64,000 bases of DNA from an uncultured Clostridia bacterium (GTDB taxonomy: Bacteria > Bacillota > Clostridia > Christensenellales > CAG-917). Shown here piece by piece: positions 10,801-11,243 of the stretch. Below the pieces are notes generated by a model that was given only the letters and a program-made list of their open reading frames with translations, had not been told where the DNA came from and did not search any database. A program made the translations under genes and the position numbers. The DNA lies in NCBI GenBank assembly GCA_944372795.1, contig CALWAF010000003.1, positions 5,443-69,442 on the forward strand, written 5' to 3'. Positions within the stretch are counted from its first letter, which is position 1. Every line of letters starts with the position of its first letter.

Positions 10801-10901
10801 AGCGCGGTGTCGGCGGCGACGTGCCCGCCCTAGCCTGTGTGAAGAAGCAGTATAAGATCGCGCCGTATAAGGTGCACACCCTCTCCTTCCTTATCAGCTG
10901 A
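7890..10901 (+). CDS. lacZ: Beta-galactosidase, glycoside hydrolase family 2
   Basis: 1003 aa. [16 protein letters not shown] (acid/base Glu) and [10 protein letters not shown] (nucleophile Glu) motifs. Confidence 0.9.
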
Positions 10902-11020
10902 CACTCTCATTTGGCGACCTGCTTTGTCAGAGCCGCTGTCATGGTGCTCACGTACGTTTAAGTACGCTCCGCTCCCTGACAGCGGCTCTTTCGCGCATCT
11001 CATCCAAATGAGAGCGTCAG
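10899..11020. repeat. Hairpin repeat module X1 (nested stems), beginning on the lacZ stop codon
   Basis: Outer inverted repeat CTGACACTCTCATTTGG (10899-10915) / CCAAATGAGAGCGTCAG (11004-11020), 16 of 17 complementary. Inner perfect 13-bp stem at 10929-10941 / 10977-10989. Central CGTAC-N6-GTACG mini-hairpin. Confidence 0.8.
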
Positions 11021-11043
11021 CGAGTAAGTGCTTGGTCGGCGCA

Positions 11044-11135
11044 CAACTTTGTCAGCACCCCTTTTCAGGCTCGTTACGTACGATTTAGTACGCGCCTCGC
11101 CGAAAACGGGGCTCTTTCGCGCATCTCATCCGAAT
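11044..11135. repeat. Hairpin repeat module X2 (same flanks and loop as X1, different stem sequence)
   Basis: Shares CTTTGTCAG ... CTCTTTCGCGCATCTCATCC flanks and the CGTAC-N6-GTACG loop with X1. The stem is AGCACCCCTTTTC / GAAAACGGGGCT instead. Confidence 0.75.
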
Positions 11136-11159
11136 ATTGCCCTCAGCAAGCTGCCAAAT

Positions 11160-11228
11160 TTTTCGCGCACGGGGTCCCCGCCGAAAGTATTTTCGGTGGG
11201 GTAAATCTCATCCAAATGAGAGCGTCAG
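11160..11228. repeat. Hairpin module X3 plus a third copy of CCAAATGAGAGCGTCAG
   Basis: CCCCGCCGAAA (11176-11186) pairs with TTTCGGTGGGG (11191-11201), including one G-T pair. The CCAAATGAGAGCGTCAG motif recurs at 11212-11228. Confidence 0.7.
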
Positions 11229-11243
11229 TACGACGGGGAGTAG

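Follow-up and report, generated by a model that had tools for sequence, protein, structure and literature searches.

The ERIC or IRU elements of Enterobacteria are imperfect palindromes of 127 bp that lie in transcribed intergenic regions, differ from copy to copy by compensated changes and have larger variants formed by internal insertions; their copies occur in both orientations and are not anchored to stop codons. The REP, BIME and REPIN elements are extragenic palindromic mosaics at the 3′ ends of genes, which stabilise the upstream mRNA, persist for long and are passed on by vertical descent; translation is affected by REPs that lie no more than about 15 nt from a stop codon. REP units are 20–40 nt long, carry a GTAG-type tetranucleotide at the 5′ end, alternate in orientation and are associated with RAYT transposases. 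The RUP and BOX elements of Streptococcus pneumoniae and the Correia/NEMIS elements of Neisseria are hairpin-forming, non-coding, multi-copy intergenic elements of about 100–150 nt that keep their sequence along the whole element, with clear terminal inverted repeats and TA duplication; BOX is modular, RUP and Correia target TA, and they are co-transcribed with their neighbours and can act on mRNA processing or termination. In the attC sites of integrons it is the fold rather than the sequence that is conserved, with an irregular base and an interior that varies; the site begins at or across the stop codon of an open reading frame (ORF), and its bottom strand is favoured. Here we describe a repeat, X, that lies downstream of lacZ in a stretch of 64,000 nucleotides (the window) from an uncultured Clostridia bacterium (contig CALWAF010000003.1, assembly GCA_944372795.1). 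The three modules at this locus, X1, X2 (X2′) and X3, are copies of a dispersed intergenic repeat family that forms long hairpins of about 125–135 nt in uncultured gut Clostridia, namely Candidatus (Ca.) Limadaptatus-like and related lineages.

Three modules downstream of lacZ

The lacZ gene (7890–10901, plus strand; a GH2 beta-galactosidase of 1003 aa, supported by Pfam domains, an inverted repeat and the fold) runs directly into the first module. X1 (10896–11026, plus strand) is an intact member of the family, with covariance-model matches of 128.6 and 123.8 bits and a minimum free energy of −71.8 kcal/mol. The fold places its outer stem at 10897–10914 / 11004–11021 on the plus strand, and the last codon of lacZ together with the TGA (10899–10901) is the outermost part of the left arm. 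Inside this stem, on the same strand, are the conserved 5′ core GGCGACCTGCTTTGTCAGAG (10913–10932), a perfect 13-bp stem of variable sequence, AGAGCCGCTGTCA/TGACAGCGGCTCT (10929–10941 / 10977–10989), an apical hairpin CGTAC-N6-GTACG (10951–10966) and a conserved, pyrimidine-rich 3′ core (10986–11005). Read as an inverted repeat, the outer arms are complementary at 16 of 17 positions (10898–10914 / 11004–11020), and at 84% when extended to 25 nt (10890–10914 / 11004–11028), with the lacZ TGA included.

X2 (11027–11147, plus strand) is a chimeric, weakened copy with a minimum free energy of −31.6 kcal/mol. It shares with X1 the flanks GGCG(A/C)...CTTTGTCAG and GGCTCTTTCGCGCATCTCATCC and the apical CGTAC-N6-GTACG (11077–11092 in X2, plus strand), while the main stems are unrelated. 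The 5′ flank CTTTGTCAG stands at 10922 in X1 and at 11047 in X2. The 3′ flank CTCTTTCGCGCATCTCATCC has two exact occurrences, at 10986–11005 and at 11112–11131, the latter being the plus-strand 3′ core of X2; about 0.01 would be expected by chance and none of 100 shuffles reached two. The right outer arm of X2, CCGAATATTGCCCTCAG, follows at 11130–11146 on the plus strand. X3 (11161–11228, plus strand), recognised through direct repeats, is the right end of a module, TTTCGCGCA ... ATCTCATCC, with an X1-type right outer arm AAATGAGAGCGTCAG. Its 3′ core is interrupted by an inserted hairpin, H, in an arrangement that is identical in strain L099, and the right-arm motif ATCTCATCCAAATGAGAGCGTCAG has its exact second occurrence here, at 11205–11228. 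The 371-nt region 10890–11260 as a whole is more stable than shuffled sequence on both strands (z = −7.1 and −7.4).

These observations confirm, with the corrections given below, the initial annotation of the window, which had described stacked modules starting on the lacZ stop codon, with common flanks and a common apical hairpin around unrelated main stems, a perfect stem in X1, a 17-nt outer repeat enclosing it and a recurring right-arm motif. Of the conserved flanks, the 5′ one proved longer than was noted, extending over GGCGACCTGCTTTGTCAGAG. The third hairpin reported after X2 is present at 11170–11204, but it belongs to a separate small repeat family inserted into the 3′ core of a truncated module. 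X1 and X2, proposed as a stem-swapped pair, are paralogues and not a compensatory series of one element. The imperfect stem of X2 does differ from that of X1, but its imperfection is damage rather than design, as in the intact X2 allele of L099 the stem is perfect over 16 bp and the fold reaches −76.7 kcal/mol, against −31.6 for X2 of the window. The right half of the window copy, from about 11069, is a nearly exact match to this allele, whereas the left half (GGCGCACAACTTTGTCAGCACC...) is of another subtype that is also found in L111. X2 of the window is therefore a chimera and not a designed "swapped stem", and it folds poorly because its left half comes from the other subtype.

A common fold with compensatory changes

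Each intact X copy folds alone into the same long hairpin, with energies of −46 to −78 kcal/mol. At the base, a locus-specific outer stem leads into the partly conserved (GCR)CTATTYGG / CCRAATAT(YGC). Next comes an asymmetric, conserved core in which short helices between pyrimidine–pyrimidine loops build an irregular helix, with GGCGA(C/A)...GTCA(G/A)AG on the 5′ side and the pyrimidine- and U-rich C(T/C)TTTC...TTCATCC on the 3′ side. The interior is a stem of 9–16 bp of free sequence followed by unpaired linkers, and the tip is a conserved apical hairpin, (C)GTAC-loop-GTAC(G). A reading of the core as a kink-turn was dropped, since inspection by eye found no match to the consensus.

Compensatory (double) changes occur in 29 of the 39 consensus pairs when 13 copies are compared, which is the result of the covariation check that the initial annotation had suggested. 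For 10 copies, double changes were seen in 24 of 36 pairs and 89% of cells were paired against 74% in shuffles, with none of 500 shuffles reaching the observed value; control alignments with slid partners gave 7–13 covarying pairs against the 24 observed. Between subtypes the core covaries, from AGAG/CTCT to AAAG/CTTT and from TGC/GCA to AAC/GTT, and so does the tip, from CGTAC/GTACG to CGCAC/GTGCG or TTTAC/GTAAA. The concerted change of both arms had been taken to indicate selection on the fold. The compensatory stem differences across copies are in line with this, but arm-to-arm conversion at the DNA level, described below, contributes too.

Copies in other gut Clostridia

Further copies, which the initial annotation had proposed to look for in other genomes, were found at several loci. 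The search comprised an exact 20-mer search of 185,579 species-representative genomes, which gave no match, a metagenome scan, covariance models and loci fetched through homologues of lacZ and RF2. It recovered 13 full X copies and several truncated or decayed ones from about seven species-level lineages of gut Clostridia (full, truncated or decayed copies in L094, L095, L096, L099, L100, L106, L107, L110, L111, L112–L116, L028, L074 and L123). Eight different upstream genes or transcription units carry X, and six of these were identified: lacZ, prfB, a tetR-family gene, a phosphatase gene, tsaD and rplA.

The metagenome scan yielded three true relatives, L094 and L095 from a genome or genomes of about 49% G+C and L096 of about 59% G+C, whose cores are 100% identical and whose stems and outer stems differ yet are complementary. 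Two other matches, L097 and L098, have no surrounding module and are probably chance 20-mer matches. Downstream of lacZ, copies are present in the same-species strain L099 and in three related species (L100; L106/L107 and L110; L111), and the lacZ locus of the window itself was found 100% identical in three human-gut metagenome contigs. A species 88% identical in RF2 (L112–L116) has copies after tsaD and after rplA, the rplA pair being in tandem, and in L112 three modules fall within 21 kb. A truncated, diverged copy was found in Ca. Alloclostridium (L028) and a compact one in a metagenome-assembled genome of Acutalibacteraceae (L074). In a related species, L123 (19531–19653), a decayed X stands after the canonical rplA terminator, with core and tip recognisable and the stems lost. 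The metagenome contigs L028, L107, L110, L111 and L116 end inside a module or a few bases from one, which is consistent with assemblers breaking at a multi-copy repeat.

That the family lies outside named families, as first proposed, is borne out by Rfam 15: the window gave no match at the gathering threshold, the interval 10700–11700 none at E ≤ 10, and the modules of L094, L096, L100, L106 and L112 none at E ≤ 1, where the L10 leader was found and served as positive control. Viral contigs had no match to a 23-mer or to the 5′ 20-mer; a 17-mer had 10 matches there, all in unrelated coding sequence and in line with chance. BLAST of plasmid and phage collections gave no X matches, and a literature search by sequence strings and keywords found nothing on X. 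A protein-coding gene can be set aside, as every frame of both strands meets a stop in at least one of the 13 copies and the indels are not multiples of three; a 16-codon minus-strand ORF (MRER...) looked conserved in three copies but is not retained in the rest.

Position at stop codons

The eight independent loci agree in orientation, X pointing the same way as the gene or transcription unit before it. At six loci the module abuts a gene; at five of these (lacZ, prfB, tetR, tsaD and rplA) the base of the stem includes the stop codon in paired form, and at the sixth, the phosphatase locus, the stem begins 3 nt past the stop codon. The far arm matches accordingly, TGA with TCA and TAA with TTA, so that covariation reaches the stop codon itself. 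At tsaD, 11 nt of coding sequence and the stop are present inverted in the right arm. Host proteins have the same lengths as in relatives without modules. The flanks of the modules are TA on both sides in L106, L110 and the rplA copy of L112, TG...CA in the lacZ copies (window, L099 and L100) and the tsaD copies, and imperfect in L094 and L095.

Two routes to the inclusion of the stop codon are possible. One is selection for a stem that the terminating ribosome opens; the other is outward growth of the palindrome by template switching, in which only conversions of the right arm survive, the left arm being coding.

Turnover at the DNA level

Strain L099 and the window share about 98% identity, with only 3 mismatches over the final 640 nt of lacZ, up to the stop codon. 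After lacZ it has no X1; there is one intact X2 with its own outer stem round the stop codon, and then X3. The closest named relative is without modules, and X is polymorphic within species. In Ca. Limadaptatus stercorigallinarum (class Clostridia), the nearest species-representative genome, lacZ is 81% identical and has the same AGCTGAC end, followed by an ordinary terminator, with the module absent. Fragments L112 and L114 are 99.1% identical, yet they have different interiors within the same outer stem at tsaD. The tsaD module of L114 (12243–12378, also in L115) is a perfect palindrome with arms of 46 bp, its left core being an exact reverse complement of its right one. Such a symmetrised core shows that arm-to-arm templated conversion occurs. 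Tandem X copies are arranged head to tail in the same orientation.

The copies thus show insertion or replacement at gene ends, exchange of the interior at a fixed site, tandem stacking, nesting and decay. Arm-to-arm template switching is seen once, in L114, and seems to act more widely. Within the host fragments of up to 64 kb no RAYT (TnpA_REP) gene adjoins any copy, and, as to a partner autonomous element with matching ends, neither the plasmid and phage collections nor the viral contigs gave hits.

Origin and role of the modules

The reading that we favour, and to which we give about an even chance, is that X is a REP/ERIC/RUP-like structured intergenic repeat with a terminator-like 3′-end hairpin, reshaped by turnover at the DNA level. 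X would form the 3′ end of the transcript of the gene before it. With a GC-rich stem and then a 3′ core rich in U and C, it would work as a terminator-like or 3′-end-protecting hairpin that takes over the place of the simple terminator present in relatives. It would spread by DNA-level insertion, ectopic conversion and arm-to-arm template switching, the last of which would make the arms complementary and copy the last bases and the stop codon of the host gene into the distal arm.

Several findings support a terminator-like role. Directly after the free stem, the 3′ core is 80–90% pyrimidine in 13 of 13 copies and has 7–12 T in 20 positions (10–12 T in 8 copies). Relatives without modules have a canonical terminator after lacZ (L039) and after rplA (L123), and the rplA modules lie just upstream of the L10 leader. 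A canonical intrinsic terminator in L112 (12380–12450), a hairpin followed by CTTTTTGTTTTC, has a 5′ flank, GGCGAATAACGTCGTCAA, that is nearly identical to the X 5′ core, which hints at a link between the X family and ordinary terminators. In the window, a terminator scan found no canonical plus-strand terminator between lacZ and the next gene.

Other observations weigh against this reading. Transcription, termination and stabilisation by X are all steps that we infer, and the modules go uncalled by the consensus terminator scan; they have a central loop of about 30 nt and, in the window subtype, a weak U-tract (CUCUUUCGCG). In L028 and L074 the module is located after a canonical terminator and may there escape transcription from upstream. 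In nine of nine copies the computed fold of the minus strand is the more stable one, by about 10 kcal/mol, although this advantage comes mostly from the invariant core, with its purine-rich loops, and is therefore one observation and not nine; counts of G–U and A–C pairs are equal on both strands and favour neither. On the side of mobility, no transposase or other mobilising enzyme was identified near any copy in the host fragments, and the flanking dinucleotides, TA...TA or TG...CA, give no clear target-site duplication. Inside the 64-kb window there are no X copies besides those at the locus downstream of lacZ, so that copy number in this genome may be low.

An unlikely but serious alternative is that X is a purely selfish, non-autonomous DNA transposon, that is, a miniature inverted-repeat transposable element (MITE), for example an IS630/Tc1-like one that targets TA as RUP and Correia do. 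In that case the hairpin would be a by-product of inverted ends and the needs of a transposase, without benefit to the host, and the position at gene ends would be where insertion is tolerated. Presence/absence and allele polymorphism within species fit such an element, as do the patchy occurrence among relatives, the tandem, nested and decayed copies and the contig breaks at modules. A terminal sequence, AAAC(G/C)GCGCTATTTGG ... CCAAATATCGC(C/G)GTTT, is conserved in several loci, and TA lies on both sides in L106, L110 and the rplA copy of L112; the 100% identity of cores between genomes of 49% and 60% G+C suggests horizontal spread. A TA target alone, however, leaves insertion exactly at stop codons in 5–6 loci unexplained, and conservation is highest in the asymmetric internal-loop core and at the tip instead of at the termini. 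The outer arms differ from locus to locus and hold host coding sequence, the TG...CA flanks of four loci stand in an inverted and not a direct relation, and the orthologous lacZ copies persist across species (lacZ proteins 79–83% identical) with the fold kept by compensated changes. That no transposase was seen near any copy counts against a MITE as well.

A bolder reading, which we hold to be improbable, makes X a self-propagating "terminator cassette" that homes to stop codons. A DNA mechanism templated by the hairpin, through fold-back or template switching, would insert or replace X precisely where an ORF ends. The final bases of the host gene and its stop codon would thereby be copied into the distal arm and translation termination would be coupled physically to 3′-end formation, with the asymmetric conserved core as the site that an enzyme recognises.

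There is a slim chance that X serves as a single-stranded DNA substrate, attC-like or REP/RAYT- or IS200/IS605-like, whose folded bottom strand would be read by a recombinase or HUH enzyme through the irregular core, the variable stem mattering only as a helix. The build of X is indeed attC-like, with an irregular conserved base, a variable interior, a length in the range of 57–141 nt, a beginning at or across the stop codon and an orientation that is constant with respect to the ORF; the greater stability of the bottom strand points the same way, but it counts once, as set out above. Copies on TAA stops have AAAC...GTTT termini, whereas copies on TGA stops lack the AAC/GTT boxes. The perfect palindrome of the L114 allele speaks for hairpin chemistry at the DNA level. 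The host genes, however, are core genes kept in synteny (lacZ flanked by the Zn_ribbon_9 gene and thrS; prfB, tsaD and rplA) rather than cassettes, no integrase, RAYT or TnpA is nearby, and there is no GTAG-type guide motif. An integron cassette proper is rejected because the synteny of the host genes is conserved, and the neighbourhood holds no integrase.

We are equally doubtful that X acts as RNA, either in cis as a regulatory or protein-binding element or as a small RNA in its own right. A factor bound to core and tip would in this case link termination at the enclosed stop to the fate of the mRNA. As in functional RNAs, core and apical hairpin are strictly conserved while stems covary; all copies are co-oriented with the upstream gene, and at five loci the stop codon is sequestered, so that the terminating ribosome must open the base of the hairpin. 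Against this, no function is common to the host genes, the behaviour of the copies (tandem, nested, polymorphic and decaying) is that of repeats, and there are neither promoter-like sites nor an Rfam relative. A promoter inside the module, with TTGTCA as −35 box, was also considered and dropped, there being no −10 box and no scan match.

Other repeats and neighbouring genes

The H hairpin in X3 (11170–11204, plus strand; identified as an inverted repeat and through its other copies) has the form GGGGTCCCCGC-stem-loop-stem-GGTGGGGTAA and represents a second, small repeat family. Across this family GGGGTCCCCGC is followed by a variable stem and loop and then by G(C/G)GTGGGGTAAA, so that the flanks are conserved and the complementary stems are free. 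Copies lie in the window at 11170–11204 and about 31795–31836, in L100 at 9383–9550 (four in tandem), in L106 at about 13197–13241 and in L099 at about 5842–5876. Nesting of H in X is seen in three places: in X3, where it splits the 3′ core, in the second L106 module, where it sits in the apical loop, and in L100 with its four-copy array.

The third family, Y, has a unit of about 120 nt. The copy at 11244–11387 (plus strand) is 82.6% identical to window 31933–32052 (minus strand) and also matches L096 6313–6459. Y copies are 73–83% identical and were found in the window at 11244–11387 (plus) and 31872–32120 (minus), in L096 at 6225–6470 and in L099 at 5973–6062; one unit follows X3 and a tandem pair lies upstream of gyrB, and Y had no match in Rfam. 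Further along, Z (11587–11656, plus strand; 88.6% identity in a self-blast) duplicates part of a gene that begins at about 31407 on the minus strand, namely its leader, ribosome-binding site and start (ATG TCA). It corresponds to 31405–31518 (minus strand), and a 24-codon ORF remnant is left downstream of lacZ. In L099 there is a longer, inverted copy of the leader region of the same gene (L099 6082–6301 against window 31730–31511).

The window has a G+C content of about 60%, and its gene order is dnaG-sigA-trmK-NIF3-Zn_ribbon_9-lacZ, an intergenic region of 840 nt, a convergent metallophosphoesterase gene and thrS-infC-rpmI-rplT. The metallophosphoesterase gene (11741–13096, minus strand; supported by Pfam and by synteny in L101 and L108) closes the 840-nt region. 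It is flipped relative to the module-less relatives L101 and L108, where the order is lacZ, metallophosphoesterase (plus), thrS, and this inversion co-occurs with the repeat-rich intergenic region downstream of lacZ. Self-comparison of the window also revealed a near-perfect palindrome of 32 nt between genes (40843–40874) and two adjacent paralogous genes that are about 66% identical (61205–62344 and 62787–63866).

Significance

With X, a poorly known clade of gut Clostridia gains a structured element that covaries strongly and is outside all RNA and repeat libraries. Annotators now leave these regions blank or call spurious small ORFs there, and assemblers break contigs at the modules; a covariance model of X could be used to mark the 3′ ends of genes and polymorphisms between strains. 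An unusual trait is the pairing of the stop codon in a stem at five unrelated genes, with up to 11 nt of host coding sequence in the far arm. Two questions become testable with this family: how palindromic repeats grow and are repaired by template switching, and whether a hairpin that the terminating ribosome must unwind has an effect on the fate of the mRNA. If X were only a selfish repeat, the result would be ordinary, if tidy.

Comparison with known systems

Compared with ERIC, X is similar in its length of about 125 nt, in forming one long imperfect hairpin near gene ends, in its compensated differences and in having nested H hairpins as internal insertions. There is no sequence similarity, however, and X conserves an asymmetric core and a tip with free stems between them. 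Like REP and BIME, X is palindromic, extragenic and part of mosaics of motif types at the 3′ ends of genes, but it is a single hairpin of about 125 nt that is always co-oriented, and the alignments show no conserved GTAG at its foot. RUP, BOX and Correia elements resemble X in being hairpin-forming, non-coding, multi-copy, intergenic and of similar size. In X, however, it is the core and tip only that are kept, the outer arms include host coding sequence, the flanks are TA...TA or TG...CA and the termini are conserved in some loci only.

The attC sites share with X a similar size range, fixed orientation, a start at the stop codon, an irregular base and a variable interior. X differs from them in lacking an integrase and cassette arrays, in that the R″/R′ boxes (RYYYAAC/GTTRRRY) are not conserved, and in having cores of 20 nt that are conserved in sequence. 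An intrinsic (Rho-independent) terminator, a class that includes bidirectional ones, was defined by a short GC-rich stem, a loop of 3–8 nt and at least 5 U in the 8 nt directly after the stem. X likewise presents a GC-rich stem and then a U/C-rich tract on the transcript of the upstream gene, it replaces the simple terminator of relatives, and one subtype has an A-rich 5′ side that pairs with the U/C-rich tract. It departs from this type in that its "loop" is about 30 nt long and has a hairpin of its own, the tract is broken by C and G, and the whole is enclosed by a further outer stem of 15–20 bp with the stop codon included. The X family shows the full set of defining features of none of ERIC, REP/BIME, RUP/BOX, Correia or attC, and its anchoring to the stop codon together with the asymmetric conserved core is distinctive. 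Most likely it is best placed among the structured intergenic repeats, as a further family of these rather than a new kind of system.

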